IMG/VR virus record: IMGVR_UViG_3300045988_159010
Length of the DNA stretch: 29,721 bases
Strand: one strand, 5' to 3'
Origin: a virus
Positions 2,985-26,100 of this stretch are shown here, one piece after another. The notes below the pieces were generated by a model, which was not told the DNA's origin, made no database searches, and saw only the letters and a program-made list of their open reading frames with translations. The stretch's first letter is position 1, and the number at the start of each line of letters is the position of its first letter. The position numbers and the translations under genes are program-made.

Positions 2985-3013
2985 TTGACTTTGCAAATTT
3001 TTTGTGTTATAAT
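2985..3013 (+). promoter_or_regulatory. sigma70/sigmaA promoter with extended -10 (TTGACT-N17-TGtTATAAT) driving the rightward early operon
   Basis: TTGACT lies at 2985-2990 and TATAAT at 3008-3013, with a TG at -15/-14. It is divergent from the promoter at 2902-2930. The 29-mer is nearly identical to the promoter at 19406-19434. Confidence 0.65.
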
Positions 3014-3041
3014 TTTTTTAGAAGGATTGGAGGTATTAATC

Positions 3042-5339: not shown

Positions 5340-7090
5340 TGGCATTACAAGACTTGCTTGACCTATCTACCAGTAGAAAAAAGATAGGTCTTTCTGAAGA
5401 ACGTATTAATGCCGTAATGCCAGTCATTCGTAAATATACTGCCTTTTGGCGCGAATATCCAGATTTATTTGTTGATTTTTTAGTACGAGGAACACGTACA
5501 GAATAGAAAGAAGGAGAATTTAAATTTTTCTTCTATTAGCGTGTTTTCTTACGTTGTGTTATGCGTTATCAATATGTTTATGCAGTTTTCCCTCGTGCTT
5601 ATTCTAAATCATTCTTATCAGTTATGGCATTAATGGTTAGATGTATTCTTTATCCTGGTGTTCATTTATTTGTTACTTCTGGTGGTAAGGAATAGGGCGC
5701 GAGCATCTTACATGATAAAGTTAATGAAATTTGTGATTTAATTCCTAGTTTTAAACGTGAAATTGATTGGGGCCGCGGTAAGAGCCAAGAGAGTAAAGAT
5801 AAAGTTCGTTATGTATTTAAGAATGGTTCTGTCCTTGATAACTTAGCAGCAAGAGAAAGCACCCGTGGCCAGCGTCGTCATGGCGGTTTGATGGAAGAAT
5901 GTGTAGGTATTGATGATTAGATTTTGCGTGAAGTCATTATACCGGTTATGGCAATTCCTCGTAGAGCTAAAGATGGTACAACCCATGAAGAAGAAGCAGT
6001 TAATAAGTCTTAGATTTATATTACTACTGCTGGTTATAAAAATACATATCCTTATGATAGATTGATTGGTTTGTTAGTTCGTATGATTACATAGCCTGAT
6101 AGATGTATGGTATTAGGCGGTACATGGCGAACTCCTGTCGCTGTTGGATTACAATAGAAAACATTCATTACCGACCAGAAAAATGAAGGAACTTATAATG
6201 AAGCTTCCTTTGAACGTGAATATGAATCAATTTGGTCTGGTACTGTTGAAGATGCTTTCTTTAATGCCGAAATATTTAATAGAAATAGAATATTGAATTA
6301 GCCTGAGTATGAAGCTTCTGGCCGTTCAAGTAAATTATCTTATTATATATTAAGTGTTGACGTAGGCCGTAAAGGATGCGATACTGTTGTTTGCGTATTT
6401 AAAGTAACGCCGCAACCGCATGGTGAACCGATTAAAAGTTTAGTTAATATTTATACTATGAATGATACTCATTTTGAGGATTAGGCTATTAAACTTAAAA
6501 AATTATATTATAAATATAAAGCTCGTAGAATTGTAATAGATGCTAATGGACTTGGCGTTGGTTTAGTTGATTTTATGGTTAAACCACAGATTAATCCTGA
6601 AACTTCTGAAGTAATTCCTGATTTTGGTGTTTATGGTGGAACTTAGGACGATGCGGTTTAGGAATATAAAAAGTATAAAACCAATAGTACAGAATTAGAT
6701 GTTTTATATTTGATGAAAGCTAATGCACCAATTAATACTGAAGCTCATAGCATTACTTAGTCAGTATTAAATTCTGGTAAAATTAAATTTTTAATAGATG
6801 AGCGAATGGCTAAATAGAAATTATTGACTACTAAAGTTGGTTAGAATATGACTACAGAGGCGCGGTCTGATTATTTAAGACCATTTAGTTTAACTACTTC
6901 ATTACGCGAAGAGATTATGAATTTGCGCGAAGAGAATGAAGGTTTAAATATTATTTTAAAACAAGCTAATAAAAGTATTAAAAAAGATAAATTTTCTGCA
7001 TTAGAATATGGATTATATTATATAAAAAAAATAGAAGAAGATAAAAAGAAGAAAAAATTCCGGGCTGCTGATTGGATGTTTATGAATTAA
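5339..7090 (+). CDS. terL: terminase large subunit (584 aa)
   Basis: I verified the frame codon by codon: 14 in-frame TAG and a TAA stop at 7088-7090. It has an N-terminal ATPase with a deviant Walker A (FPRAYSKSF). The C-terminal nuclease domain carries a RuvC/RNaseH-like IVIDANGLGVGLVDF motif, as is typical of TerL. Confidence 0.85.
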
Positions 7091-7099
7091 GCCGGGCAA

Positions 7100-7143
7100 C
7101 TCTTATTATTCTTTTAAATTAATTTTTAAAAGAATAATAAGAG
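7100..7143 (+). terminator. perfect 16-bp AT-rich hairpin (CTCTTATTATTCTTTT / AAAAGAATAATAAGAG, 12-nt loop) just after terL
   Basis: The inverted repeat 7100-7115 / 7128-7143 is perfect. It could be a partial terminator, an RNA-processing site or the boundary of an inserted gene. Confidence 0.45.
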
Positions 7144-7178
7144 GAATTTATTTGTAGATAAGAAAGGAGACTTAATAT

Positions 7179-7535
7179 ATGGATGCCAGTCGTGCGGAAA
7201 TTAAGATTAGAGAAATCTTAGAGGAAGCCGGCCTGAATTTTAAGATGGAATATATATTTCCAGATTTAAAAACACATAATGGTCGTCCTTTACGTTTTGA
7301 TTTTGTCATATTTGATGATGATAATAATATTGATTTTTTAATTGAATATCAAGGGAAATAGCATTATGAAGCTAGTAATAAATTTGGCGGAAAACGTGGA
7401 TTATATCAATAGCAATATAATGATAATCAAAAACGTAGATTCTGTGCTTTACATGATTTACATTTAATAGAAATTCCTTATACAGAAGAAAATTTAATTT
7501 CTTATGATTATATAATGCGAAAAGCTGGATATTAA
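7179..7535 (+). CDS. DUF559/Vsr-like PD-(D/E)xK endonuclease-fold protein (118 aa), possibly a homing-endonuclease-like insert
   Basis: It has an AGAAAGGAG RBS, 2 in-frame TAG and a TAA stop. The motif RFDFVIFDDDNNIDFLIEYQGKQHY...KRRFCALHDLHLIEIPY matches the DUF559 signature (hhDFhh...IEhDGxxH ... R...L...G..hhRh). Confidence 0.5.
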
Positions 7536-7552
7536 TTGAAAGAAGGTGAAGT

Positions 7553-9241
7553 ATGGAATTAGAAAAGGAAGAATTAACCAGAAATGAATAGATACATAAA
7601 AAAGGTTTTGACATAACTGGAGGAGTACGTGAGTATTCTGCAGTTGGCCCAAATGAATATAAGAAGATTAAGGTTGGTGTTAAGACATTAGACGATGCTG
7701 TCTTAAATCTTGGATCTTTTAGATGGGACACTTATGGTCGTCGCAATGAAAAGTATAGCCGTGAACGTATTTATACAAAGCCCATGGTTATGGATGCTTT
7801 AATTCGTAATGATATTCAAGAATTGCGAAGAATATCACGCTTCTTTTTTAGAGTAAGTGGTATTTATCAAAGAGTATGTAATTATTTTGCGAATATGTAT
7901 CGTTATGATTGGGCTATTGCTATTTAGTCTAATAATACTGACGGCTCTGCTGTTAAAGATATTAATGAAACAAAAGCAGTAAAAGATTTCTGGCGAATTT
8001 TAAATTATTTAGATAATTCTTATATTAAGAAAATTTGTGGCGATATGGCTCTTGAAGTTATCAAATGTGGAGCTTATTATGCCTATATTGTTTCCTCAAG
8101 TACTGGCTTAATTTTATAGCAACTTCCTATTGAGTATTGTCGTTCAAGATATTCAGTAGGTAATTTACCTGCTATTGAATTTGATATGAGATACTTTGAT
8201 ACTTTTGTGGATACTAATTACCGTAATAGAGTATTAAAATTATTCCCTGATGAATTTACAATAGGTTATCGTCTCTATAAGGCTGGTAAACTTTTACCTG
8301 ATGTAGCTGGTGATAATACTGGTAGTTGGTATTTGTTAGATCCACAAAGCACTATTAAGTTTGCTTTAAATGGTACTAATGATATTCCATTATTTGTAAA
8401 TGCTATTCCAGCAATTTTGGATTTAGATGCCGCACAAGATTTAGACCGCCGCAAGCAGATGCAAAAATTATTAAAGATTTTAGTTTAGAAATTACCACTT
8501 GATAAAAATGGTGATTTGATTTTTGATATTGATGAAGCTCGTGATATTCATAATAATGCTGTTGAAATGTTGCGTAGAGCTGTAGGTGTTGATGTATTAA
8601 CTACTTTTGCAGATGTAGATGCTATTGATACTTCTGATAAAAATACTTCTGCTACCACAGATGAATTAGAGCGTGTTGAACGAACTGTATATAATGCATT
8701 TGGCGTTTCGCGCAATTTATTTAATACAGATGGCAATATTGCGTTGGAAAAGTCTATCTTAGATGATGAATCTACCATGCGTAATTTAATTTTGCAATTC
8801 AACATATTTTTTGATAGAATATTATCAGTCCTGAATGTTTAGAAAAAATATAATTATAAGTTCTATATGTTAGAAACTACACAATATAATTATAAAGATT
8901 TATCTAAGATGTATAAAGAGCAAACTTAGATTGGTTTCTCTAAAATGTTACCTTAGATTGCTCTTGGATAGTCATAGAGTTTTATTCTTAATACGGCTCA
9001 TTTTGAAAATGAAGTTCTACATTTAAGTGAAGTTATGATACCGCCTCTTATGAGTTCTACATTAAATGGTGAAGATATTTTGGGTAAAAAAGATTAGAGT
9101 AGTTCTAACACTTCTCAAAATAAAACAAGCGGAAATACCACTACTGTAAAAACAGAAACTAAAGAAAGTGGTCGGCCAGAAAAAGCTAATGATGAAAAGA
9201 GTGAAAAAACAATCGCTAATCGTCAAGCGGCTGGTAAATAA
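7553..9241 (+). CDS. portal protein (562 aa)
   Basis: I verified the frame: about 10 in-frame TAG and a TAA stop at 9239-9241. The call rests on its size, on its position immediately after TerL, and on a Ser/Thr/Lys-rich low-complexity C-terminal tail of the kind seen in portals. Confidence 0.7.
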
Positions 9242-9253
9242 GGAGGATTTATA

Positions 9254-10795
9254 GTGAGACATACAAGTGTTAAGTTAGATACTCCTGTTGAGTTTATTAA
9301 TATCACTAAAATCAATCCTTTAATTTCTAAATGTTAGATTAAAGTTTGTTATGTTGGTGATAAACCAAATCGCAATAGAAGTGTTATAACAAAAGAAGTT
9401 GCTAAAGATTTAGCACAAAGTTTACCAGGTAGCCCTATTGTTGGTTATTTTAATGAAGCCAATGGTGATTATGAAGAACATAATCGTATTATTGATATTT
9501 CTAATGGTAAATTTGATATCAAAGATACTACTGTTCCTTATGGTTTTGTAGACTTAGGAGCTAAAGTATGGTTTTAGAAATTTTTAGATGATGGAAAAAA
9601 CGAGCATGAATATTTAATGACTGAAGGCTATATCTGGACAGATATCTATCCAGAAAGTAAACGTATTATTGAAAAAGGTAATAATCAATCTATGGAATTA
9701 GATGATGAAAAAATTAATGCGTATTGGTCGAAAGATAAGAATGGAATGCCCGAATTTTTTATTATAAATGAAGCAATAATTAAGAAACTTTGTATTCTTG
9801 GAGAAGATTGTGAACCTTGCTTCGAAGGAGCTAATATTACTGCACCTACGATGCATTTCTCATTTAGTGATAAATTTAATGAGCAATTATTCTCTATGAT
9901 GAAAGATTTAAAAGAATTATTAGAAGGTAAAGGAGGAACAAAAGTGTTCACAAGATATAGTGTGGAGATTGGTGATTCCATTTGGACTTCTCTTTATTCT
10001 TACATTAAGGGTTTCGGAGCAGGTAATGCAATGATTGAAGAAGTTTGCGAAGACAATGGTAATTTATTTGCTATTGTCAAGGAAGATGATAAGTTCGTTC
10101 GTTTAGATTTTTCTATGGAGAATGATACTTTCACTCCTGGTGAAGTTTCTGAATTAACTGATTATTCTGTTTCTGATAATCCTCAATTCGATCCTGAAAA
10201 AGTTGCAGAATTTGCAAAGAAAAAAAAGGACGAAAAAGATAAAGACAATAAAGAGAATAATGATAATAATAAGGAAGATCCTTCTAAAGATCAGCCAAAA
10301 GATGATGAAAAGAAGGACACTCCCGAAAATAAACCAACTGATACTTCTGATGAAGAAGAAGAACCAACTGAGGATGATGAAGAGAAAAAAAAGAAAAAGA
10401 AAGCTAAGTACTCTTTGGAAGATGTAGTTGAATATGGTTTATTAAAAGACGAGTATACCGCGCTTGAAACTAAATATAATGAATTAGTTGAAAAGCAAAC
10501 ACAACTCGAACAAGAACTTGCTTCTTTAACTCAGTTTAAGACTGAGGCTGAAAGAGAAAAGAAACAAGAAATGATTAATAGTTTCTATATGTTATCTGAT
10601 GATGATAAGAAAGATGTTGTTGCTAATATTGATACTTATTCATTAGATGATATTGAAGCAAAGCTTTCTATTATCTGTGTTCGCAATAAGGTCAATTTCG
10701 ATACTAATGAAAAGAAAGAAAATGACCCACTTACATATAATATTAATAATGATGTAAATGACGATAGCATTCCTGCTTGGATTAAGGCAGTATAG
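9254..10795 (+). CDS. head morphogenesis / scaffold-like protein (513 aa) with a poly-K/E/D low-complexity segment and a C-terminal coiled coil
   Basis: A GTG start follows GGAGG. I verified the frame: 2 TAG near the N-terminus, then an open stretch to the TAA at 10793-10795. The charged KKKKDEKDKDNKENN...EEEEPTEDDEEKKKKKK region and the coiled-coil segment (LETKYNELVEKQTQLEQELASL) fit a scaffold-like role, as does its position after the portal. Confidence 0.6.
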
Positions 10796-10843
10796 GATGT
10801 TGCGAAAACTATGGAATAATAAATTTTTAAGGAGGAAAACCTA

Positions 10844-11620
10844 ATGCTTTTAAAAGATATGCTTAAAGACCTAAGCGGCGTATCTGCTGTTAAGGGCGGC
10901 TACGTTGAATATGGCTATGGTCAGGTTGAGCCTAATCATTTAAGTGCTCAACGCACTGGTCAGATTTATGCTCAATTACCTGCTAACAGAAATATCCAGC
11001 TTCTTGAAAATGGCCAGTTTGTTAAGTATGACTATGCTGCTGGTGAGCTTGGTGAAGTTGATTTCACTGGCAAGGGCGAATGGATGTTAGTTTATAATGA
11101 AATTAAACTTTATCGTGAGGAACAAGCTGATTGCGAATTTGCTATGCGCAAAGATGATTATCAAGCTCGTTATTACAGCCCCTATGATGGCAAGCAGGAA
11201 ATTGGTACACGTCAGGCTCGCTATTTAAATGGTAAGGATGCCGAAGGTAATACTTCTATGACTATTACAGATAGTCAGGGTGTACAACATACTTATGAAT
11301 ATGATGATGTCACTGCTGGTCCTGATATTCGTGAACTCTTCTATGAAGAAGATCCTTTACACTTTGATGGTCCTTATGAGGCCCGTAGAATGCCTGCTGG
11401 CACTAATATGGTTCCTCGTGTTTTCAAGACCAATGTTGGTGATATTTTTACGACTAATACTATTGCCGAAGCTACTCTTGTAGTTGGTGATATTTTAAGT
11501 CCTCGTGCTGCTGATGGTATGCTTTCTAAGACCGGTGATGGCTCTATCCAGTGGTAGGTTGTCAAGGTTTATGAAATGCCTGATCATCAGAAGGGCGTTA
11601 AGATTATGCGAATCGCGTAA
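10844..11620 (+). CDS. head protein (258 aa), TAG-free except one near the C-terminus
   Basis: It has a very strong RBS (TTAAGGAGGAAAACCTAATG) and GC visibly higher than the neighbouring genes. The single TAG at 11555-11557 is followed by 20 more sense codons before the TAA at 11618-11620. Confidence 0.6.
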
Positions 11621-11637
11621 GAAAGGAGAGAAGAAAA

Positions 11638-12774
11638 ATGTTAGATAGAAAAAATCTTGTTCAATTAATGAAGACTGTCGCTAAGGCTGATCCTTCTACT
11701 CCTACTGCTTACAGCTTTAATGGCGAAAGCCTTTCTTATGATGCTCTTAATGAAACTCTCCGCAGAGAATTAAATGAACTTGCTGGAACTTATTCTTTAT
11801 ATCGTGATAATAAGAACCTTATTTTCTCAATGATTGAGGAAACTATTGATGAAGTTCTTCCTAAGAAAGTTGAAGAGCAATATAATCAGTTTGCTGAAGT
11901 TAAGACGTTTAAACAGGGTGACAAGCCTATTTTCCGTAGAAAGTTCAGCAACAATACTCGTGCAAAGCAATTCATCACTCGTGTCGGCCTAGCTGGTATC
12001 TATGAAGTATTCAAGCTTGGTAAGACTGAAGAATGCTTTGAAGTCCGTACAAGTGCTATCGGCGGAGCTGCTCAAATTGGCTTTGAGGAATTCCTTGATG
12101 GCCGTGTCGATTTTGGTGTTGTTACCCAGATCGTCATGGAAGGTATGGATGACCTTATCTATAAAGAAATTGCCGGTGCTTTAAAGGCTTCTGTTAACCA
12201 GTTACCTCCTGCTAACCGTTTAGTTGCTAATGGTTTTGATGAACCCGGTTTTGATAAGTTACTTATGATTGCTTCTGCTTATGGCACTCCTACTATTTAT
12301 TGCACTTATGAATTTGCTGTTCGTATGATTCCGAAGGATGCTTGGCGTTATACTGAAGCTATGAAGAATGAGCTTTGGAACACTGGCCGTCTTGCTTCCT
12401 ATAAGGGCTATAAAGTTGTTATTCTTGAGCAGGGCTTTGAAGATGCTACCAATGAAAAGAAAGTCATTGACCCAGGTTATGCTTGGATTATTCCTACTGG
12501 TGCTGATAGTAAGCCTGTAAAGGTTGCTATGGAAGGCAATACCATTGTTGATGAATATACCAATTATGATCGTAGCCGTGAAATTCAGGTTTATAAGAAA
12601 GTTGGCGTTATTGCTATGTTAGCTAATAACATCTGCTGCTATTGTGATACTGAACTTCTTGGTGATATGAAGACATGGCATCTTGATGGCGTAACTGGTA
12701 AGGTCCGTGACTATGCTGGTCAAATTACTGGTTCTCATGATACTATTGATGGCGGTAACGAAGATAAGCCGTAA
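11638..12774 (+). CDS. major capsid protein candidate (378 aa)
   Basis: It has a GAAAGGAGAG RBS, no TAG codons, and elevated GC with biased codon use, which is the signature of a highly expressed gene. A strong intrinsic terminator follows, and the gene sits at the canonical position after the scaffold-like genes. The function is inferred from position and expression signals. Confidence 0.5.
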   Translation: MLDRKNLVQLMKTVAKADPSTPTAYSFNGESLSYDALNETLRRELNELAGTYSLYRDNKNLIFSMIEETIDEVLPKKVEEQYNQFAEVKTFKQGDKPIFRRKFSNNTRAKQFITRVGLAGIYEVFKLGKTEECFEVRTSAIGGAAQIGFEEFLDGRVDFGVVTQIVMEGMDDLIYKEIAGALKASVNQLPPANRLVANGFDEPGFDKLLMIASAYGTPTIYCTYEFAVRMIPKDAWRYTEAMKNELWNTGRLASYKGYKVVILEQGFEDATNEKKVIDPGYAWIIPTGADSKPVKVAMEGNTIVDEYTNYDRSREIQVYKKVGVIAMLANNICCYCDTELLGDMKTWHLDGVTGKVRDYAGQITGSHDTIDGGNEDKP

Positions 12775-12809
12775 TTGATATTAACTAAAAATTAATATAT
12801 AATATTTTT

Positions 12810-12850
12810 AGGGGAGAATGGGGAAATCCCCTTCTCCCCTATTTTGTTTT
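12810..12850 (+). terminator. intrinsic terminator (AGGGGAGAATGGGGAAATCCCCTTCTCCCCT + ATTTTGTTTT)
   Basis: A GC-rich interrupted stem (AGGGGAGAA/TTCTCCCCT with an inner GGGGA/TCCCC) is followed by a T-rich tract directly after the capsid candidate. Confidence 0.7.
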
Positions 12851-12872
12851 ATGAGTAAAAGGAGAATAAAAA

Positions 12873-13439
12873 ATGAATAAAAAAGTTTTATTAGTTACTA
12901 ATAGAAGTGCTGGAATGGTCGTTTATACTATTCCTGAAGAAGGCATTCGTAGAGAATTCACACCTGGTGAAACTAAAAAAATTCCTTTTGAGGAATTAGA
13001 GAAGCTTGCTTACCTTAGCGGAGGCCGCACCTTAATGGAAAATTTCTTAAAAATTGTAGATACTCAAACTACAGAAGAATTGGGTATTCATACAGAACCT
13101 GAATATTATTTAGATGATGCTGGAGTTATTAAGCTCCTTACTGAGGGAACTCTTGATGAATTCCTTGATTGTCTTGATTTTGCTCCTATTGGAGTTATTG
13201 ATATGATTAAGAGCTATGCTGTATCTCTTCCTATGAGTGATTATAATAAGCGTAAAGCTCTTAAGGATAAGACTGGATTTGACCTTGATAGAGCATTAGC
13301 TAATAAGGAAGCTGAAGCTGCGGAGGATGAACAGATTACTCCAAAAGCTCCTGAACGTAGAGTGAAGACTGAAACTAAGCCTACAACGCCTCCTGGTCGT
13401 AGAACTGCTCCTCGTTATAATGTTGTAAAAGAAGGTTAA
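12873..13439 (+). CDS. hypothetical structural protein (188 aa), TAG-free
   Basis: Intact ORF with an AAAGGAGAAT RBS. The C-terminus is Pro/Thr/Arg-rich. Confidence 0.65.
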   Translation: MNKKVLLVTNRSAGMVVYTIPEEGIRREFTPGETKKIPFEELEKLAYLSGGRTLMENFLKIVDTQTTEELGIHTEPEYYLDDAGVIKLLTEGTLDEFLDCLDFAPIGVIDMIKSYAVSLPMSDYNKRKALKDKTGFDLDRALANKEAEAAEDEQITPKAPERRVKTETKPTTPPGRRTAPRYNVVKEG

Positions 13440-13461
13440 TTATAAATAAGGAGGGTTTTAT

Positions 13462-14073
13462 ATGACATATTTTTATAAAGTTTATGAACGTTTTTTAGGC
13501 AAAGTAACAGATGATATGTATTTAGAACTTACTCCTCGTGATACATTTTTAGATTTACGCCAATTACTTGTTGATAGTATTCCTGGATTTGAATTTCCGC
13601 GTAAACGATTAGATTACGTTTTAGTAGATGAAGATGCTCCTGATTTTATAAAAGGAGAGATTGATGGCGGAGATATTGATATACCATTAGGTGGAGATTT
13701 GTTTGAAGAAGTAGCTGGTAGTAATATTGATATAGATAATGCTTTTTAGGAGATATTTTCTGAGGAAAATACCTCCTATTTTAATGCCGATTTAGATGAT
13801 GAAGAAATTAATATCTTAGCTTTAATCATGGTTGAAGCTTGGGTGGAACGTCAATTGGCATCTATCGAAGTAACAAGAATGAAATATTCTGGAACAGATT
13901 TTAAATTTACTTCATAGGCAAATCATATGTAGAAATTGTTATCATTGAGAACAGAAGTAAGACGTCAGGCATTTCATATGTAGAGATTATATAAACGTCG
14001 TAAAACTGATGATGATGGATATATTAAATCCAATTGGTCTGTTCTAAGGGAGGTAAGCGCCCTTGATGACTAA
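13462..14073 (+). CDS. hypothetical head-tail joining region protein (203 aa)
   Basis: It has a TAAGGAGGG RBS. I verified the frame: 4 in-frame TAG and a TAA at 14071-14073. Confidence 0.6.
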
Positions 14074-14359
14074 ATATAATTTTGATATAGACAATAATTT
14101 AATTAATACTAATATTAATAGACTCACTAATTAGATATGGAAATTAATTCCTATGAGAGAAAATGAAGAAGATTGGTTATCTTAGTTAAATACTGTAATT
14201 ATTGAATTAACTGGTCTTGGGGAAATTTTTAATGATAGTTAGTATTTAATTCTTTTAAGTAAATTAGAAGGACTAAAAAATATTGAAATTGAATTTCCTA
14301 TTTATAGAAAGACAGTGTTTGAAGCTATTACTTTATTAAGGGGGCTTCATATTGAATAA
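14066..14359 (+). CDS. hypothetical small protein (97 aa)
   Basis: It overlaps the upstream gene by 8 nt. I verified the frame: 3 TAG and a TAA at 14357-14359. Confidence 0.5.
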
Positions 14360-15347
14360 AAATGAATATTTAGATGCAATGTATAACCGTATTCCAAAAG
14401 CCAATATGCTTACAAGATATTTATATGGCGATGGAGTAACAGGACAACAAGAACGAATGATAAGAGATAAACGTAAAACATTAAGTAGAGCTTTACTTTA
14501 TTCTTATCAAGCTGCCTTGGTAAAAAAATTATATGATGATAAAGATACTATTGAACGTCGTGCATTAATCAACCCTGATAAAACAAAATAGGATTATGAT
14601 GAAAAAATTATTTCAATTGGTTTTGAAAGTAATTTTAAAACTGGGGATATTTTTTAGTGGTTAGGTACAAATACTTATTGGTTAATTTATTTACAGGATT
14701 TAACTGAATTAGCTTATTTTCGTGGCAATATAAGACGTTGTTCTTATGAAATTGCTTGGGAAGATGAAAATAAAAATTATCATAAAACTTATGTAGCTTT
14801 GCGTGGTCCTGTTGAAACTAAAATTAATTACATCCAAAAGCATGAAATTAGTATAGATACACCTAATCATTCTTTAAATATATTATTACCTTATAATGAT
14901 GATAATGTAAAATTATGCTAGCGTTATAATAAATTTTATTTGTAGAATGACCCTAATAAAACATGTTGGCGTATTGAAGCTATTGATTTGTATTCTACTC
15001 CTGGAATAATTGAAATTAATGCTGTCGAGTATTATTCTAATGAAACTGCTGATGATATTGATAATGGCATTGTCAACGGTTTAATATAGCCGGTTCAAGA
15101 TCCTAATTCAGGTAAGGAGAATGGTATTATTGGTGATACTTTTATTAAGCCAAAAGTGGTATATGAATATAAATATAATGGAATCAAATCTGGTAAATGG
15201 ACTTGGGATAAAAAACTACCATTAACAGTTAAAGTAAACGAAGAAACAAATACTTTAAAATTACGATGGGAAACTACTTATTGTGGTTAGTTTGATTTGT
15301 TCTATGGGCCAGAATGTAAAACCATTGTAGTTGAATCTTTATTTTAA
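14352..15347 (+). CDS. hypothetical structural protein (331 aa)
   Basis: A TTG start follows AAGGGGG, with an alternative ATG at 14379. I verified the frame: 7 TAG and a TAA at 15345-15347. Confidence 0.55.
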
Positions 15348-15368
15348 AGATGAAGGAGAAATCGGAGA

Positions 15369-15959
15369 ATGAAAATTGATAATGTAAAAAATCCAGAGTC
15401 AGCATTTTTAGCCCAAGAAAAAGATATGAGAATCATAGTTGATCGTATGGCCGCGAATCAACGTTTGCGTAAATTACTTTATTATACTACTCCTGATGCA
15501 TTAAGATTGCCAGAAGTAAGTGATTAGAATTTTGTAAAAATGTTCGGTAAAAATATAAGGAATTTACCAAAATTATATATAGATAAAGATGTTTTAAATT
15601 ATATTGTTATTAGTTTTGATAACTTTGCTCCTAATGGAGACAATCCTGAATTTAGGGATAATACTATTGAATTTGATATTGTTTGTCATTATGATTAGTG
15701 GCAATTAGCTGATTCATTTTAGTTAAGACCTTATAGAATCGCTGCCGAACTTGATAGTATGTTAGATAAAAAACATTTAACTGGAATTGGGCAACTTAAT
15801 TTCATCGGAGCATAGCAAATTATATTAACTGATGAATTTGCTGGACTTTGTTTATTATATGATACAATACACGGAGGAGAAGATAAAAAATATATGCCAA
15901 ATCCTGCTGATGAACAAATGTTTATCGAGGATTATTTTAAAATGCCTAAGATGAATTAA
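15369..15959 (+). CDS. hypothetical structural protein (196 aa)
   Basis: It has a GAAGGAGAAATCGGAGA RBS. I verified the frame: 4 TAG and a TAA at 15957-15959. Confidence 0.55.
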
Positions 15960-16693
15960 TGGATTATAAACTTAGTTTAATGTGCGGAACAGATTTACCT
16001 GTTCCAGAAATTCCATTAACCCTCCATTAGCCTAAGATAAAGGAAATAGCATTAATTGGCGAAAAAGAATTTTTTACTGGTGCTTAGTGTCTTTGTATTA
16101 ATAAAAATAGTATAACAAATCAGGACAAGAATGATTTGGATACTACTACCAATTTTTAGATATTTATGATGGTAATGCTATAGAAAGATAATAATGAACG
16201 GCGTAAAGCTGCGCAATAGGTTCTATCATTACTATTCCCAAATTCAAAGTCTACATTTACTCCTAGATCTATTGTTATTTAGTATAATGAGAGTGACATT
16301 TAGATTAATATTGATGATGATAACTTTGAATTATTTTAGTCGGTAGCAAGACAAATTTTTTGTTTTGATACTAATAAAAATGGGCAAGATAATTATAATC
16401 CTGCTAATAAGAAAGCTCAAGAAATAGCTAATAAATTAATGAAAGGGCGTCAAAGGGTCGCTGAACTTAAAGGGGTTACCGATTCAAGCATTTTGAGCCA
16501 ATACGTTTCTACATTGACTATTGGATTAGATTCAATGTCGTTAGAAGATTGTATGAATTTAACATTGTATTAGTTATACGATTTAATAGAAAGATTTTCT
16601 CTTTATACTAATTGGGATATTGATGTAAAGAGTAGATTAGCAGGAGCTAAGTCAGATAAAAAACCTGACAATTGGATGAAAAACATTCATTAA
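15959..16693 (+). CDS. hypothetical structural protein (244 aa)
   Basis: Its ATG overlaps the upstream TAA. I verified the frame: 11 TAG and a TAA at 16691-16693. Confidence 0.55.
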
Positions 16694-16772
16694 CTTTGTA
16701 TAAATCGCTTTACTAATTTTTGTAGCGAGTTATATAAATAAAATTTAAATTTTATTAAGGAGGAAATAACCT

Positions 16773-17864
16773 ATGAAATTTGGTGTTCGTGAAATATGCG
16801 ATGTCGTATTAAAAGCTCGTGCTCCTATGAAGGTTGGTAATAAAGTTTTCTATGCGAACGAACCAGTTCTTTATTTCGATACATTAAAAACTTCTAGCCT
16901 TGAAGGTGCTTCTACGACCGTATATGCACAAGGCGGACGCGGCAATGCTCGTTTAGTAGCTTGGGACGGTGACCGTACTTTAACATTCACTATGGAAGAT
17001 GCTCTTATTTCTGCAGAAGGTTTCATGATTCTTGCTGGAGCTGGCCTTATTGATGCTTCTAAACAGAATACAATTAAGCAACATGTAACTGAAAAGACTA
17101 CTGCTGTGGCTCTCTCTGAAGATAAGGATAGTGTACAAATTTTTATTAAAAATTTACCATATGAACAAATTGATACTACCACGGGTGCTCATAAAGGTGA
17201 ATATTATATTTATGCTATGCGTGTTGACAATGATGAACCAGTAACTGAGCCTTATCTTCCTACAGTTATTCGTCAAACTGAGGCGGGGGCAGTTGCGAAA
17301 CCTCAAAAGTTCTATTTTGATGAAACTGAAATGAAGTATAAGACTTGTACTGATGCAGAAGCTGATACTAAGGCTAAAGCTGGTACTTAGATTTATTATG
17401 GTCTTTAGATTAAGGAAATTACTTCTGCTTATAAGATTGTTGATGAAGCTGAAGCTAATGCAGTACATAAATTAGAATTATTTAAAGATTCTGTTGTTCT
17501 TCTTGATTATTATATTGAGAAGGCTAGCAATGCTCGTCAAATTGAAATTACCGCTGAATCTTTTGGTGGCAACTTCTATCTTGAAGCTTCTACCTTATTC
17601 CGTACTCAGGATGGTGTTGATCTTCCTGCCGAATTTATAATTCCTAACTGCAAGATTCAGTCTAACTTTACTTTCAGTATGGCTGCTACTGGCGATCCTG
17701 CAACTTTCACTTTCACACTTGATGCTTTCCCAGGAACTACTCGTTTCAATCCTACTAAGAAAGTATTGGCTGCTGTTCAGGTCATTGAAGATATTGATAA
17801 TGATAGTGTCTATCGTACTCAAACTATCCATGATCCGATGCATGACAGCTATTTTGATATTTAA
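16773..17864 (+). CDS. major tail protein candidate (363 aa)
   Basis: It has a very strong RBS (TTAAGGAGGAAATAACCTATG) and only 2 TAG codons (17388, 17406). GC is elevated. A strong terminator follows after a small downstream ORF. The function is inferred from position and expression signals. Confidence 0.5.
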
Positions 17865-17866
17865 TT

Positions 17867-18031
17867 ATGATTATTAGCTCTAATGCTCCACGACCTGTTA
17901 AAGCATCTGAAGTAGAAAAAGTTATAGTTAAAAAATCAAAAAAAGAAAATAAAAATTCTCAAGAAAAAGAGAATAAAATTCCTCTTACAGAGGATGAACT
18001 TATTGATAAGATTATTAAAGGAGAGGGTTAA
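17867..18031 (+). CDS. small Lys-rich ORF (54 aa)
   Basis: The ATG lies 2 nt after the upstream TAA. There is no TAG, and the TAA at 18029-18031 is embedded in the terminator hairpin. Confidence 0.4.
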   Translation: MIISSNAPRPVKASEVEKVIVKKSKKENKNSQEKENKIPLTEDELIDKIIKGEG

Positions 18032-18049
18032 TCCCTCTCCTTTTTTTTT
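18020..18049 (+). terminator. intrinsic terminator (GGAGAGGG-TTAAT-CCCTCTCC followed by T9)
   Basis: A perfect 8-bp GC-rich stem (18020-18027 / 18033-40) is followed by a 9-T run. Confidence 0.8.
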
Positions 18050-18075
18050 ATTATGTGAAAAAGGAGATATAATAT

Positions 18076-19395
18076 ATGGCAAAATTAACAAATGCCTAGA
18101 AAAATTAGTTAGTTTATTATAAACAAAAAGGAGTTTCTTATAAAAATGAAGTAAATACTCCTACTTATTTAAGTAGTCTTTTAGAAGTATATAGAGCTGC
18201 TGCTCGACCAAATGATACAATTGCTAATAAAGAAGTTTAGGATGCTAAATTATTAGAAAAAGTTTTAAATGGAATAAAGTAGATTCAAAATAATTATACT
18301 AAAAAAATGTCTTTTTCTACTGAATCTTTAATAGAGATTGTTTAGGATTAGGCTTTAGCTGAATTACTTAATTAGTTATATACGGTAAATCCTGGATTAT
18401 TTATTGGAGGAGGTTTAATTAAAAAAGGAGCAAATAGCTATGAACGTGGTGCCTTATTAGAGAATTTTATGAATGAATTTATTACTACTATTGACTATAC
18501 TTTTTAGAATATGGAAATGCCTTATGGTCCTTTACCGTAGACTCATCGGTCTGGCCAATTAGTTGATAATATTAATATGAAAAATTTAATTACTAATATT
18601 GGTGGAGAGTTTATAGATAGCACTACAAAAACTGCAATAAATAATTTGTCTCGGTTTATTTATAAAGTTGGATAGGAAAAAAAAGATTCAGGTAATACTA
18701 CAACTGAACGTCGAAAAAATAATTTAGAAGCTACTACTATTTATACTCAAGTTAAAGAAAATGGTCGAGTTGGAGCTATTTAGGGCAAATAGATAAAAGC
18801 TGATAACACTGGTTTAAATTATAGTATTTCAATTACTGCTACAGCGACACTGTTAAATCAAGTAGTTAATGCCTTATCGATGGCTACATTCAGCGATAAA
18901 AATTATTTATCAACAGATTTTATAGGTTTAGGTAAAACTAATCCTTATCGTGTTTTTTTAACTGTGGCTGATGGAGATACAGGTTATAAATTATATAGAT
19001 ATGCTCGTATGTTAAATTGTATGGCAAAGCATTCTAAATTAGCAGAACATAATGATGTGCCTAAAATGTTTTTTAGAATTAGAGCTATTTATGAATTGAC
19101 TGGTGCTAAACAACAAGTTGGAAATACTAAGTATGCTTATTAGAGTGTAATGGCTAATTTTATTAATGATATTGGTCGTACTAAATTTTTAGTTATTAAT
19201 AATCCTAAAAAGCAAGGTTTTTTAAAAGTTTTATCAACAGCTAAATTAGCAGAAGATATAGAAATGAATTTATATTTTAATAAAAAACAAGGTTCTAGAA
19301 GTATTTTAGAAAATGATGAAAGAAGAATGTCTATGGAGCAAGCTCTATATGGTCCTATTAGTATGAATTTCAGTAAAATTTTTGAAGATTAGTAA
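18076..19395 (+). CDS. hypothetical tail-region protein (439 aa)
   Basis: It has an AAGGAG RBS. I verified the frame: about 13 in-frame TAG. It ends ...GAA GAT TAG TAA, that is, a TAG directly followed by a TAA. Confidence 0.55.
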
Positions 19396-19434: not shown

Positions 19435-19511
19435 ATATTTATAAAGGATAAAAATTAAAAAATTTGTTTCTGACAAAATTTTTAAAATATAAAGTTAAAG
19501 GAAGTGAGAAT

Positions 19512-20039
19512 GTGGCGAAAATAGCTTTTACAAAACTCTCTCTCCAGAAAAATTCAGAAATAAGAAATTGGCAATATAATGATCAAATTATTGAAGTAAA
19601 ATAGTATCTTCCAATAAAAGAGAGAATGGATATTGCTTAGTCGGTCATTCAACAAGTCATTGATTTTAATAATGAATTTTTGAATGAATTTGCTTTCCAT
19701 ATGTATATGGATTTAGCAATAGTATTTAATTATACAAATTTATCTTTTACTGATAAACAGAAAGAAGATTTGTATAAACTTTATGATTTACTTGTTGGTT
19801 CAAGGTTTATAAAAGAGTTAAAGAAACAAGTAAATTGTAATCAAATTGATGATTTAGAAGTCTATACTTATGAAATGCTTAATGGATATTATAAATATCA
19901 TAATAGTGTTTATGGGATTATGGATGCTATGAATCAGAATTATTCTAATTTAAATTTAGATGTTAATGAATTACAAGATAAGATTTCTAATCCTGAAAGT
20001 CTATCTTTAGTAAAAGATATTTTAACCAAGATGGGTTAA
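19512..20039 (+). CDS. possible tail assembly chaperone (175 aa; minimal standard-code version 19680-20039)
   Basis: A GTG start follows AAAGGAAGTGAG. There are 2 in-frame TAG and no TAA/TGA across the 56 codons upstream of the ATG at 19680. The gene sits immediately upstream of the tape measure and is bounded by its own promoter and terminator. The function is inferred from position only. Confidence 0.45.
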
Positions 20040-20081
20040 AATATCATAATTGATTTCTAATTTAAATAGGAATATTAAAAG

Positions 20082-20113
20082 GCGAGAGGCTTTGTTCCTC
20101 TCGCTTTTTCTTT
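20082..20113 (+). terminator. intrinsic terminator (GCGAGAGG-CTTTGTT-CCTCTCGC followed by TTTTTCTTT)
   Basis: A perfect 8-bp stem (20082-20089 / 20097-20104) is followed by a T-run. Confidence 0.8.
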
Positions 20114-20151: not shown

Positions 20152-23100
20152 ATGGCTAATAACAGTGCTAATTATAATGTTAATATGCGATTTACAGCTG
20201 ATACAGGTCAGGCTAAATAGCAATTACGAGATTTACAAAGTTCATTAGATACTTTAATGAATTAGATAGCAACAAAAAATATTAAATTTTTTGATGTTAA
20301 TGCCACTAAAAAAGAAATAGATGAAGCCTCGGCAGCAGTTTAGGAGTTAAAAATTGCTTTAGATTAGGCGACTAATGTTAATACTGGACGTTTAGATTTA
20401 TCAAAATTTTCAAAGAGTTTAAGTTAGAGTGGCTATACTCTTTAGGATTTTGCTACACATTTAGAGAATCTAGGTCCAACAGGTGATAAAGCATTTGTTG
20501 CGTTAGCATAGTCTGTTATTAATGCTGAAGTTCCTTTAAAAAGAACTAATGCTTTATTAGATAATTTTAAAAAAACATTAGCTAATACAGCCAAATGGCA
20601 AATTTCATCTAATTTAATGCATGGAGTATAGGGTTCTTTATAGAAAGCTTATTATTATGCAAAAGATTTAGATAAATCATTAAACGATATTCGTATAGTT
20701 ACTGGATAGAGTAGCGATCAAATGGCTTAGTTTGCTGAAAAGGCAAATAAGGCTGCTCAAGCATTAAGTACAACTACTACTAATTATACTAATGCTTCTT
20801 TAATTTATTATCAATAGGGTTTAAGTGATAAAGAAGTTGCTGATCGTACTGAAGTTACTATTAAAATGGCGAATGCAGCAGGTGAAAGTGCTTCTAAAGT
20901 ATCCGATTAGTTAACTGCTATTTGGAATAACTTCTATGATGGGAGTAAATCTCTTGAGTATTATGCAGATGTAATGACTAAACTTGGTGCATATACTGCT
21001 TCTAGTACTGATGAAATCTCAGAAGGTGTATAGAAATTCGCATCTGTTGCTAATACTATTGGTCTTAGTTATGAATATGCTACATCTGCATTAGCTACAT
21101 TAACTGCTAAAACACGTGAAAGTGCGAACACAGTAGGTAATAGCCTTAAAACTTTATTCGCTCGTATTTAGGGTTTGACTCTCGGAGAAACTCTTGAAGA
21201 TGGTACTGATTTAAATAAATATTCTAAAGCCCTTGAAAAAGTTGGTATTAGTATTAAAGACCAATAGGGTGAGTTAAAAGATATGAATACTATCCTTGAT
21301 GAAATGATGAATAAGTGGGATAGTTTAAGTCGTGCTGAACAAGTGGCTCTTGCATAGACTGTTGGTGGTGTTCGTCAATATACTCAATTAGTTAATCTTA
21401 TGGAAAATAAAGATTATTTTAAAGAGTTAGTTGGAGTGGCTAAAAATTCTGAAGGTACTTTACAAGAACAAGCTGATATTTATGCTGAAAGTTGGGAAGC
21501 TTCTAAGAAGCGAGTACAAGCTTCTCTGGAAGAAATTTATAAGCAATTAGTTAATGATAAATTTTTTATTGGATTAAATGATACATTAAGTGATACATTA
21601 AATATTACAAGTAAATTAATTGATTCATTAGGTGGATTACCTGGCGTATTAAGTGTCATTTCTACTTTAATGTTAAAGAGTTTCGGTCCTGATATTGTAA
21701 ATAACATGCAGCGTATGGCTTCTAACTTGTTTATTGATAGCGGAGCTGCTGAAAATTAGGCTGCGGTTATGAAAAAAGCGATGATTTAGACATTACAATC
21801 TTTCTCGCCTGAATCTAAAATGGAATTATCAGATTAGGGTTCTGTCACATTAGAAACTACTACAATGATTAATGCAGCTTAGGCATCTTATGATTTATAG
21901 ATAGCTAATAGTCAATTAAATGAAACAGATAAATTAAGACTTTAGACTTTACTAAAAATTTCTTAGGTTTATGGAGATATCGCTGTATAGGCTAAAAGAA
22001 GTATTGAAGTCCAGCAGCAGTAGACTTAGAATAATTTACGAGATGCAAGAAATTAGATTTTTCTTACTACTAATGAAAATTTTGGTGGAGAAACTGGCGT
22101 AAAATATTTTGATAAAAATTATAAAGCTGGACAAAAATTAATTGATAGTTTTTATAATAATAAGGTTTTAAAATAGTTAAATTCTTAGAAATTTGATAAT
22201 AGTGATTCTTATTAGAATTTTTTGGCTAAATTTGATAATATTAAAGGATTAAATACTGATTAGAGATTTGACAAATTAAATCAATTATTAAATAAAGCTA
22301 AAGGAGCTTCTAATAAGCCAAGTAATATTTAGTCTCGATATAGAAATTAGATTATAGAAGAAATAAATAATTTAAAAGATGTTAATGTAGTTTTAGATAA
22401 ATATGTAAACAATAAAGCTAGTGCCGATGGAGCAACTAGAAAATAGATTGAAGCATTACGTCAATGTTTAAATGGGTATGTAAAAGAAAAAGAAGCTTTA
22501 ATACAAAGTAATAATGCCAATAAAAAATATACAGACTCAATAAATGATTTCGAGAAAACTTTGGCAAAAAGTCAAGGAGCCGTTATGACTTTTTCTTAGG
22601 GATTGGTTTCGGGCGCGTAGGGAATCTCTTAGTTGGCTATTGGTATTAATAGTATCCATGGTGCTATATAGGCTTTAAATAGCGAAGATTTAACCTTTGG
22701 TGAAAAAGTATTTTAGATGACTACATCGCTATCTATAGCGATTCCTTCTATTATAAATGGTTTTACTAATTTACAAAAAAGTATATAGAGCATTAATAGT
22801 AGTAAAGGATTAATTGGAACAAATATTTTATAGTTAGTTACTGGGTTAAATGAAATTAAAGAGGCAAATTTAGGCGCTGAATTATAGAAATTAAGTGCAG
22901 CCAGCAATACTTCTGGTTTAAGGTTTAAAGCTTTAAAAGCTATGACTGATGCTTATAATACTAGCATGGAAGGAGCTAAAGTTGGAGCTAATGGATTAAC
23001 TAAAGCTATGGCTGAATAGGCGGCTGGTACTGCAGCTTTAAAGGCTGGTATTAAAGCTGTGGCTGGATCTTTAGGCATTTATATAGCCATCGCTGCGGCG

Positions 23101-26100
23101 ATAGCTGCAATTATTGCAGTTATAGTCCATTTAAATGAAGTAGCAAAAACTAAAACTTTAGAATCTTAGTTAGCTCGTTCTGAAGAGGCTGCTGCAAATT
23201 TTGAAAAACAATTAGAAAAAACAAAATCTAAAGCTGAAGAATTAAAAAATGTTTTTAATAATTATAAAAATATTAAAAAATCTTTAGATGAATGTACTAT
23301 AGGAACAGAAGAATGGCGAAAGAAACTTCAAGAGACTAATGAAACAGCACTAGAAATATTAAAAAATTATCCAGAATTAAAAAATATTGAAGGCGCTTGG
23401 GGTAAAAAAGACACAGGAGAAATTTGGATTGATGAATCGGCGCTAAAGGGTTTACAATCTGAATATGATAATAAAATTTTATCTCAGTCTTATAATTTAG
23501 CTAGACAAAATTAGAATAGTAATGAACTTAAAAATGCTATAGCTTGGAAAAATAATTTTAATGATATAACTTTATCTTATGGAGCTACTTTTAATGATTT
23601 AGAAGGTTCTTATCGTCCTGAAAAAGATGAAAGAACTTTTAATGCTTTAGAATATATTAGAAATAATTTCTAGAATTATAAAGGTTATTCGGATGATTTA
23701 ATTCTTAAGGATATTTACTCTTATTTAAATAAAGAGGGATATAATAATATTGAAGGTTAGGCCTATTAGGAAAAATTAACTTAGTTTATAAATGAAATTA
23801 ATCCTACTTTATAGTCTTTGATTTCTACCATAGAAGAAAATACAGATGCTACTTTGCAAGCGGAGCAAGAAAGTGTTGTCCAATAGAAATTAGGCAAAAC
23901 TAATATGTCTTCTCAAGAAGTTAAATTAACCACAGAAGCTTATAACAATGCCATTGAAGATAAAATAGCTGAAATGAAAAAAGCAACTAGCATTTGGGAT
24001 GGCAAATGGAATGGAACAATAACTTATGATGGACTAGAAATTGGTACTCATGGTGAAAATGCTCGTAACAGCCAATAGGTTAAAGATTTATGGGATGTAT
24101 ATTTAAAATCATAGGGTATTGATATAAATGATAGTGATTATAGACTAAATTAGCAAAATTCTGTAAAAGGTAAAGGACAAGATAGATATTTTGTTTATGG
24201 CCAAGACTAGAAAGTTTCTTTTGAAGAAGTTATTTAGGCAGTTGCTTAGTATGAAGTGGATTAGGGTAATTTCTTAACTGAATTAAATTAGGCAGCTACA
24301 AATTTTTTAACTAATCTTGGAAAAATTCAATACACTGATGAAACTAAGTAGAAAATTGAATCTGGAGGAACTTTAGGAAAAGGTTTAAGCAGTTTTATTG
24401 GTAATAAGGATTTAACTGAATTAACTTAGGAAGAAATAGATAATTTAGGAGAATTAACTGAGGATACTTTAAAAGAGCGTGTAGCTGCTGCTATGGGATT
24501 TGATTATGCTAAAGCTACTAAAGAATAGTTAGCTGAATTAGATGATTAGCTAATAGCTATTTATGGGGCTGTTGGAGTTGATTCCGGAGAAGAATTTGTT
24601 GAATAGTTTAATACAGCTATTATAAATTATGGAAAAGAAACAGAGAAAATTGCTAATTCATTTTATGGTAAATGGGCTACAGCAGAAAATCTAAATTCAT
24701 TTACTTTAGAGGTACAAAAAAAATTAAAATCTACTTTTGTAGATGTTTTTAGAGTAAGTGGAGAAGAAGGAATTGCTGTCTTTAAAGAAATAATATCTAA
24801 ATACGGATCTGATTTAACTCCAGAATTATTAGATTTAATTGGAGATTTTGATTGGACTTAGAGTGGAGCTATTGATAATTTTATATCAGCTTTAGAAGAT
24901 TTAGGTATTTTAACTGATGATAATACTGAAGCCTGGAAAAGATTTTCTAGTCAAATGGCTGAAGCAGCTAATAATTTACCGATAGATAAATTAACTAATT
25001 TACGAGATATTTTAGAAGATATATACAAATTATTAGGTAAAGATGTTGGTTCAATTTTTTCTTAGGAAGATATTGATAAATTAACATTAGGCGGATATGA
25101 TATTGAAGGGCATTATGCTCAAGTTGGTTCAGACGAATATGTTAAAACTAGAGATTATACTACTGAAGAAAAAAATAAAGCTTATGAACAACAAATTCAA
25201 ACTGCTAAGAAAAAAAATGAAATAATTTATGGTGCTAATGATTATAATTAGGCCTAGGTACAATCTAAAGTAGATAGTTGGGGAAAATATGGTGACAAGT
25301 ACATTTCAGGAGAATGGGATAACTTAAGTTCTTCTTATGTAAAGAGTTATATTGACAGCATTGGAGGTATTGAAAATGCTGCTACTATAACTGGATGGGA
25401 TTAGGATAATTTTTCTGATGAATATTTAAATAGTATAACTTCTTAGGAACGTGCTGAAATTGTTGATGCAATAGTAAAGGGAATTAATAGTGTTTATAAT
25501 GGACAAACTGATACTGGTGTTATAACTACTTCTCATTTATATAATAGTTCAGACTCTATAAATGAAATGACTTAGATGGAAGGGTTCCGTGATGAAGAGG
25601 GATCTGTATCAGATTCTGGAATTGAAGCTATTAGTGGAAAATTAGCCGGGTCAGAGGAAGGTTTAGAATTATTACATAAATATTAGGATGAAATAAAAAA
25701 TGTCACTAAAGGTACTGAAGAATGGGATAAAATAACTAATCAATTCATTAAAGATAGTCAAGGTTTAGAATATAAAGAATAGGCAAAAGAATTAGGAAAT
25801 TATAATGATAAATTAAAAGAAGCAAAAAAAGCTGGCGAAGATTATGAAGAAGAACTAGGTAATGTAAGAAAATAGCTCAATAAAATGCTTGATATCGAGG
25901 TAGATGATGATTTCATTGAAGAATATCAAGATTAGATTGATAAAATGCTTAGTGGTAAGACATTAGAAGAACGCCAAAGTGCCGCTAATACAATTAAATT
26001 CTAGGCTGAATTAGATAAAGAAGATATTGAATCTAAAATACCTGATGAACTTTAGAATGAAATTATGCCTATGTTATAGAATAATTTGCCTAAATTAGAA

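Follow-up and report, generated by a model that had tools for sequence, protein, structure and literature searches.

Gut phages that use genetic code 15, in which TAG is read as glutamine (Gln), include crAss-like phages, Lak phages and others, and their recoded codons concentrate in late structural and lysis modules (10.1101/2021.08.26.457843; PMC9523058). For crAss-like phages, peptide evidence exists that UAG is translated as Gln (PMC9523058). Here, we analyzed TAG usage in a 29,721-nt stretch of viral DNA (IMG/VR record IMGVR_UViG_3300045988_159010), hereafter called the window, which is recognizable from its sequence as the late (virion) module of a recoded siphovirus that is kin to the gut phage phAss-1 and to SPbeta-like siphoviruses. 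Like the gut code 15 phages, the clade to which this phage belongs combines TAG as a Gln codon with low GC content, a tRNA(CUA) that is phage-encoded in relatives and close standard-code kin. Unlike in the gut code 15 phages, the structural genes expected to be the most abundantly expressed are the exception here and nearly exclude TAG. Four genes, referred to as the focal genes, show this pattern: the major capsid protein (MCP) gene (11638-12774), the two genes that flank it (10844-11620 and 12873-13439) and the major tail (tube) protein gene (16773-17864).

In ciliates, highly expressed genes have been described to be higher in GC content and to under-use reassigned stop codons, with translational inefficiency or a stronger constraint to keep canonical codons as candidate explanations (PMC10553269). 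Ciliates differ from the phage described here in that they use a eukaryotic nuclear code with a changed release factor, whereas the virus transiently imposes its code on a host for which the standard code and an intact release factor 1 (RF1) are presumed. Given this presumed intact host RF1, competition with termination should be sharper than in ciliates. In one recoded phage of the Crassvirales, an MCP gene without TAG was reported in a TAG-rich late module, was called surprising and was read as a sign of diversifying selection (10.64898/2026.08.21.746148). In comparison to the present data, that report concerns one genome and an unrelated capsid lineage, lacks statistics and a control for codon bias, and covers neither tail-tube nor flanking genes. 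In the work of Cook et al., translation table 11 sufficed to find 407 of 475 MCPs of code 15 genomes, which indirectly agrees with TAG-free capsid genes.

Translational selection is also a classical theme in phage late genes, and T4-type matching of tRNAs and codons is cited in the preprint by Borges et al. (10.1101/2021.08.26.457843). The situation in the window resembles this classical selection in that high-copy virion genes use a distinct set of tRNA-matched codons (the tRNAs of phAss-1 fit this pattern) and differs from it in that the disfavored codon is a former stop codon, such that the penalty can include premature termination. Capsid genes are not mentioned in the text of the same preprint (10.1101/2021.08.26.457843). 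In the literature searched, in which Borges et al. was covered as preprint only, no systematic statement was found that recoded phages keep the recoded codon out of their highest-copy virion genes. Both the principle and the kind of phage are known, and the pattern described here is well supported as a new instance that quantifies this principle and not as a new mechanism.

TAG usage in the window

With the standard code, the + strand of the window fragments into short open reading frames (ORFs). ORFs of at least 100 amino acids (aa) cover 30% of the window with the standard code, 93% if TAG is read through and 32% if TGA is read through; read-through of TAA raises the coverage to 73%, but from 76 ORFs that are shorter, more numerous and overlapping, the longest with 412 aa. 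When the TAG columns of the window were compared to 22 standard-code loci, Gln represented 54% of the aligned residues, followed by glutamate with 9%. The window thus belongs to a phage recoded from TAG to Gln (code 15).

Comparison of the four focal genes to the other 14 genes of the window showed that TAG represents 3 of 1187 codons in the focal genes and 198 of 7371 codons in the others (Fisher p = 7e-10). Within Gln codons the corresponding counts are 3/42 and 198/392 (Fisher p = 1e-8), and the difference was also found when TAG was compared to CAA alone (p = 2e-4). The odds ratio (OR) of in-frame against out-of-frame TAG was 0.17 in the window (p = 6e-4), and an OR of 0.09 was also computed; as out-of-frame TAG is not equally depleted, the effect is translational and does not represent avoidance of a DNA or RNA motif.

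A first-pass annotation of this DNA, which proposed that highly expressed structural genes avoid the reassigned codon, had counted no TAG in the 378 codons of 11638-12774, one at the C-terminal end of 10844-11620 (258 codons), two in the 363 codons of 16773-17864 and none in 12873-13439 (188 codons), and these counts are exact. The higher GC content and biased codon choice that it noticed were likewise confirmed, with a GC content of 0.37-0.41 for the focal genes and 0.23-0.33 for their neighbors and a distinct position of the focal genes on the codon-bias axis described below. Its assignment of the strongest AGGAGG ribosome-binding sites to the focal genes was not borne out, as their Shine-Dalgarno duplexes (-9.3 to -13.4 kcal/mol) are no stronger than those of TAG-rich neighbors such as the portal gene (-14.1 kcal/mol), 4125-5339 (-13.4 kcal/mol) and 14063-14359 (-13.1 kcal/mol). 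The TAG content of 2-4% given for the neighbors has to be widened to 0.3-3.7%, with 2985-4106, 9254-10819 and 19464-20039 taking intermediate positions.

TAG usage in related phages

With the capsid protein as query, IMG/VR yielded 80 loci with 71-100% MCP identity, including 58 TAG-recoded and 22 standard-code loci. The best match identified, IMGVR_UViG_3300029858_000001 (157.5 kb), has an MCP with 99.7-100% identity but carries the TAG codons of its tube gene at other positions. Across the 58 recoded loci, TAG represents 1.0-2.5% of the Gln codons in the focal gene families and 14-64% in every other family. Dereplication at 95% portal-gene identity resulted in 20 recoded lineages, and the contrast in TAG usage between focal and non-focal genes was found in 20/20 of them, each with p ≤ 2e-4.

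The same contrast is present in phAss-1, a published gut phage with TAG-to-Gln recoding for which the TAG-bearing ORFs were listed and avoidance by expression level was not analyzed (PMC10607447). In the complete phAss-1 genome, all four focal orthologs carry 0 TAG, and the gene for the tape measure protein (TMP) carries 110; the Gln codons of the MCP ortholog are 0 TAG, 0 CAA and 15 CAG. Blastp of the window proteins against phAss-1 ORFs showed identities of 42% for TerL, 38% for the portal, 49% for MCP, 48% for the N-terminus of the tube protein and 32% for TMP, and tblastn matches were found in large siphoviruses of the Enterococcus EF1-like, SPbeta-like and Bacillus Tsamsa-like groups. The phage of the window and phAss-1 share code 15, TAG in TerL and TMP and a giant TMP of ~3100 aa; in phAss-1, unlike in the window, the TMP block is located upstream of the head genes. 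Assignment to Phassvirus, a proposed genus defined by genome nucleotide identity of at least ~70% and shared synteny, was rejected, as the MCPs are 49% identical at the protein level and the gene order differs. On these alignments, the phage of the window is a more distant member of the wider phAss-1/SPbeta-like group.

Further analysis of the standard-code relatives showed the same codon bias in the same four genes, with enrichment of CAG (log2 OR +2.65) and avoidance of ATA, GGG and CGA, and the bias is hence independent of recoding. One phage family, with 71-81% MCP identity to the window, includes both standard-code members (loci L009-L025 and L072-L076) and recoded members. A neighbor-joining tree of TerL, portal and MCP (14 taxa, midpoint rooting) left the number of code gains and losses unsettled.

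Codon bias and mutational supply of TAG

To rank genes independently of Gln codons, synonymous codon usage was subjected to principal component analysis with the Gln codons excluded. The first component (PC1), which represents a phage-internal axis and not a codon adaptation index of the host, accounts for 40% of the variance within the window and for 70% after pooling. In the window, the four focal genes stand alone at the positive end (0.49-1.26), with all others at or below 0.12. In the window alone, TAG share and PC1 are only loosely related and the genes give the appearance of two classes (rho -0.32, p = 0.2), whereas for 17 gene families pooled over the 20 recoded lineages rho is -0.87 (p = 6e-6, a value that overstates independence, as the lineages share ancestry). 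The correlation persists when only the 13 non-focal families are considered (rho -0.74, p = 0.004). The within-genome gradient proposed in the first-pass annotation can therefore be upheld for the pooled lineages and not for the single window. That annotation had also named loss of the correlation under control of length and composition as the result that would speak against it; with GC content at third codon positions (GC3) and gene length controlled, the partial correlation remained at r = -0.82. Taken together, these results support strong selection against TAG in a defined set of late genes, scaling with an independent proxy of expression.

Alternatively, depletion of TAG could be a by-product of a general shift in composition and codon usage, with no cost specific to this codon other than that of being AT-rich and non-optimal. 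While the focal genes are indeed higher in GC and GC3 and the TAG-rich genes of phAss-1 are also the richest in A and T at third codon positions, the correlation with PC1 survives the control for GC3. The loadings of PC1 oppose CGT, GCT, GGT, ACT, CTT, TTC and AAG to AGA, GCA, GGA, ACA, TTA, TTT and AAA; they run mainly from NNA to NNT and not towards a gain of GC, and thus resemble translational selection, not a plain rise in GC content. Also in line with a general shift are the enrichment of CAG and GC in the same genes of the standard-code relatives and the depletion of CGA and GGG, which is nearly as strong as that of TAG. Among all codons depleted in the focal genes, however, TAG ranks first, with a log2 OR of -4.5, followed by CGA and GGG with -3.6 and ATA and AAA with -2.8, and its depletion is specific to the reading frame.

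The mutational supply of TAG also has to be considered. As a change from CAA to TAA would create a stop codon, TAG can be reached as a Gln codon only from CAG, by a C to T transition. CAG is the main Gln codon of the focal genes, and the mutational opportunity for TAG is therefore greatest there. Nonetheless, in the recoded lineages, TAG occupies 1-3% of strictly conserved Gln columns in the focal genes and 30-60% in the neighboring genes. The ratio of TAG to CAA is 0.72 in the non-focal genes, which is near neutral, and 0.08 in the focal genes. Relative to CAG, from which each of the two codons is one AT-ward transition away, TAG is reduced 82-fold in the focal genes and CAA 9-fold. A purely compositional origin of the TAG depletion is regarded as unlikely.

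The four TAG-poor genes

The gene at 11638-12774 (+ strand, as for all genes below unless noted; 378 aa) is assigned to MCP through homologs annotated as major capsid protein in the Bacillus phages Thrax1, Thrax3 and Kirov. It has the highest PC1 value of the window (1.26), and its Gln codons are 5 CAA and 6 CAG with 0 TAG; 51/58 recoded relatives also have zero TAG in this gene, with a TAG share of 1.0%. A nested GC-rich hairpin with a T-run is located right after the MCP stop codon (12811-12850, +; inner hairpin 12820-12837), and, as a match to consensus only, could have a terminator- or attenuator-like function.

The gene at 16773-17864 (363 aa) is assigned to the major tail (tube) protein by annotation of its homologs, which are called major tail or tail tube protein in the Bacillus phages KoopaTroopa, Thrax4, Thrax5 and Kirov and virion structural protein in Lactococcus 949-like phages; phrog_2729, which it matches, is a virion structural protein family. 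It has a PC1 of 0.96 and 2 TAG, 8 CAA and 4 CAG codons, with 1.7% TAG in recoded relatives. Both TAG codons fall into an insert of variable sequence in the middle of the gene, and the standard-code orthologs have a gap, R or T at these positions. An intrinsic-terminator-like hairpin with an 11-bp stem and a T-run (18017-18052, +) is located ~150 nt 3' of the gene; terminator-like hairpins after both the MCP and the tail-tube gene are consistent with abundant transcripts that end there. A 54-aa ORF lies directly 3' of the tail-tube gene (region 17868-18052), and its end overlaps this terminator.

The gene at 10844-11620 (258 aa), which lies next to the MCP gene and has no assigned function, is also TAG-avoiding and strongly codon-biased, with a PC1 of 1.08 in the window and TAG at 2.5% of Gln codons in the 58 recoded relatives. 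The first-pass annotation had grouped it with 11638-12774 as capsid candidates; the MCP homologs support this for 11638-12774, and 10844-11620 is here called MCP-adjacent only. Its Gln codons include 5 CAA, 9 CAG and 1 TAG, at codon 238 of 258. In the alignment, a nearly invariant Gln stands opposite this lone TAG and the 20 residues that come after it are conserved as well, which identifies it as a genuine sense codon and not a stop codon. Programmed production of a short and a long isoform at codon 238 was considered and rejected, as relatives carry CAA or CAG at the conserved Gln, the C-terminus is conserved everywhere and TAG is found only in the closest lineages.

The gene downstream of MCP at 12873-13439 (188 aa), for which no function has been assigned, contains 0 TAG, and TAG represents 2.1% of its Gln codons across the 58 recoded loci (2.1-2.5% for the gene and its orthologs), an avoidance similar in strength to that seen in MCP. 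Its general codon bias is weak (PC1 of 0.49 in the window and 0.10 clade-wide), which makes it an outlier to the gradient. Syntenic orthologs were found in phAss-1 and in Enterococcus EF1-like phages. Of six late proteins compared to Pfam, among them the four focal ones, none gave a match, and sequence and profile searches of the PDB gave none for the three proteins searched (11638-12774, 16773-17864 and 10844-11620). AlphaFold2 models were of low confidence, with a predicted local distance difference test score of 58 for a homolog of the tail-tube protein and of 52 for a homolog of 10844-11620.

Suppressor tRNA genes

Genes for tRNA(CUA), which would read UAG, were found inside tRNA arrays in contigs of two recoded members of the clade (L138 and L147), and phAss-1 carries tRNA(CUA) three times, also inside tRNA arrays. 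Other tRNAs of phAss-1, namely Gln(CUG), Lys(CUU), Arg(ACG), Leu(GAG) and Phe(GAA), read CAG, AAG, CGT, CTT and TTC, which are codons preferred by the focal genes. In L147 (contig IMGVR_UViG_3300045988_110853, shared with the recoded locus L045), the array with the CUA suppressor also includes an opal-suppressor-like tRNA with the anticodon UCA at 7726-7805, which ARAGORN labels SeC. Read-through of TGA gave no gain of ORF coverage in the phage structural region of L147/L045.

Possible causes of TAG avoidance

Taking the above into consideration, we think it likely that the four focal genes are under strong translational selection that purges TAG, a codon whose cost would rise with protein copy number. 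In most late genes, TAG may have become a nearly neutral synonym of CAA that now encodes a third to half of the glutamines, and it would be supplied from CAG by C to T transition under an AT-biased, C-depleting mutation pressure. In the four focal genes, TAG would be purged harder than any other disfavored codon. Decoding of UAG by a phage-supplied suppressor tRNA(CUA) would compete with the host release factor and would be slower and less complete than decoding of CAG, such that each in-frame TAG could cost yield, ribosome time and truncated subunits. For subunits that form a lattice, truncated products that poison assembly may represent a further cost. We infer high expression or copy number, together with release-factor competition, as the cause; sequence alone cannot separate such competition from slow decoding by a scarce suppressor tRNA.

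Copy number can be estimated for the tail tube. As a rule of thumb, a phage tail measures ~1.5 Å per residue of its tape measure protein. A TMP of ~3074 aa would therefore correspond to a very long tail with several hundred tube subunits, similar in number to the capsid protein. The first-pass annotation had further suggested that low-copy proteins tolerate or exploit TAG. The excess of TAG over CAA in TMP, TerL and 18076-19395 may be sufficiently explained by a depletion of C that favors the change from CAG to TAG over that from CAG to CAA, and exploitation of TAG by low-copy genes is thus not needed.

Several observations weigh against selection scaled by copy number. Annotation of homologs supports a high copy number for two of the four focal genes only, MCP and tail tube, and 12873-13439 avoids TAG without a strong codon bias at the level of the clade. 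Shine-Dalgarno strength, used as another proxy of expression, shows no relation to TAG usage among the genes of the window (rho 0.09). A tRNA scan of the 29.7-kb window identified no suppressor tRNA(CUA). The shared ancestry of the lineages, noted above, weakens the pooled p-values. TAG lies only ~1 log2 unit beyond CGA and GGG, and may simply be the worst of the non-optimal codons, with termination adding no particular cost. In addition, 10.64898/2026.08.21.746148 cites Borges et al. for a preference for TAG in a 'tail tube' family of crAss phages, contrary to the tube gene of this siphovirus, and the avoidance rule may consequently not hold for every recoded phage.

A second alternative to TAG-specific translational selection, besides the compositional shift discussed above, is a rule of timing, by which bulk subunits could be translated before or without the code switch and low-copy proteins (portal, terminase, tape measure, connectors and lysis proteins) would be gated by TAG. 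This would fit a published model in which recoded codons delay the translation of late and lysis genes (10.1101/2021.08.26.457843; PMC9523058), and it would accommodate 12873-13439, which avoids TAG in spite of its weak codon bias. The alternation of TAG-free and TAG-rich genes in one co-oriented cluster can be read in its favor, but this arrangement also places TAG-free genes among TAG-rich genes of the same stage, such as the portal gene, and no sign of earlier transcription was identified in the sequence. An on/off gate, moreover, does not predict the graded relation found in the non-focal families. Timing is thus considered an improbable cause of the pattern.

A related and doubtful possibility is that bulk lattice subunits are kept free of TAG and low-copy nucleators and finishers are gated by it, such that the suppressor tRNA would represent a checkpoint of assembly and packaging and not a general switch of late genes. 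If this were true, the capsid protein, the tube protein and the two capsid-associated proteins would accumulate whatever the state of the code switch, and the ratios of TAG, CAA and CAG would provide an in-genome readout of suppression efficiency.

Two further alternatives to TAG-specific selection fare far worse. Recent import of the TAG-poor genes from a standard-code phage (mosaicism) would explain a GC content above that of the neighbors, and possible donors exist in standard-code relatives with 73-81% MCP identity; it is nevertheless very improbable, as the four genes are not contiguous but separated by five TAG-rich genes, the pattern is present in 20/20 lineages, even where aa identity falls to ~50-55% for three of the focal proteins, and also in phAss-1, synteny is conserved and the standard-code relatives share the within-genome contrast. 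Chance or ascertainment, by which genes would have been picked for having the fewest TAGs, is hardly credible, since, even though the focal genes were chosen partly post hoc and the window-only Spearman correlation is not significant, an unsupervised, Gln-free axis selects the same genes and the pattern was replicated in 20/20 lineages and phAss-1.

Other features of the window

The late-module genes all have the same orientation (+). The module is headed by a sigma-factor-like gene (2985-4106; phrog_5767, E = 5e-52), with a C-terminal tail that is rich in cysteine and HNH- or zinc-ribbon-like. This gene contains 1 TAG in 373 codons in the window, yet TAG represents 23% of its Gln codons clade-wide. 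It is followed by a TAG-bearing gene without assigned function (4125-5339) and by the genes for TerL (5339-7090), an HNH protein (7179-7535) and the portal (7553-9241), which were annotated by PHROG, and by a gene for an acidic coiled-coil protein (9254-10819) that may represent a scaffold. The genes from 4125 to 10819 served as upstream comparators, and TAG represents 23-61% of their Gln codons. The HNH gene, located between TerL and portal, contains 2 TAG, was found in 80/80 loci and is the most conserved gene of the block (aa identity of 86% in recoded and 80% in standard-code relatives); despite its PHROG label, a packaging-associated HNH protein is more likely than a mobile homing endonuclease.

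Five small genes with PHROG matches to connector or head-tail proteins (13462-16693), located between the capsid block and the gene for the tail tube, show TAG shares of 40-100% of Gln codons. The interval between the tail-tube and TMP genes includes a TAG-rich gene (18076-19395; 14 TAG in 439 codons) and an intermediate one (19464-20039; 2 TAG in 191 codons). The TMP gene (20152-29376; 3074 aa from its corrected start) is the most TAG-rich large gene, with 115 TAG, 81 CAA and 12 CAG as Gln codons, and the N-terminal region of its product aligns to the phAss-1 tape measure ORF with 32% identity over 386 aa (E = 7e-49). The TTG at 20050, which gives the longest ORF, is probably the wrong start, and the ATG at 20152 is preceded by an AAAGGAG ribosome-binding site. 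A 13-bp terminator-like hairpin (20077-20109) lies between this ATG and the preceding gene.

From 3000 to 29721, the + strand shows a sustained positive GC skew of 0.2-0.38, that is, a depletion of C. Positions 1-1700 have a GC content of 45%, compared to ~30% elsewhere, and include three minus-strand ORFs that are intact with the standard code (183-407, 407-742 and 796-1200), for which no Pfam match and no nucleotide match in the phage collection were found; blastn of 1-2984 against phages likewise gave no match. A foreign insert, a moron or an assembly junction may account for this GC-rich region. A 66-aa small regulator of the AbrB/MraZ type (SpoVT-AbrB fold; PF02381, E = 2e-5) is encoded at 1921-2121 on the minus strand, divergent from the late module. 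Rfam and tRNA scans of the window gave no matches.

Implications

The common view that structural genes of recoded phages are written in the alternative code can be refined, as the presumably most abundant of these genes are effectively code-neutral in this large clade. For annotation, this means that capsid and tube genes appear intact under the standard code and that their neighbors fragment. Models of the code switch are also affected, since such a switch cannot gate the synthesis of capsid subunits. For the engineering of genetic codes, selection reports a residual cost of amber suppression, with a shift of TAG in the focal genes that is about nine times that of CAA. Finally, as standard-code and recoded relatives coexist in this clade and share a gene set, it provides a good natural system for the study of stop codon capture.

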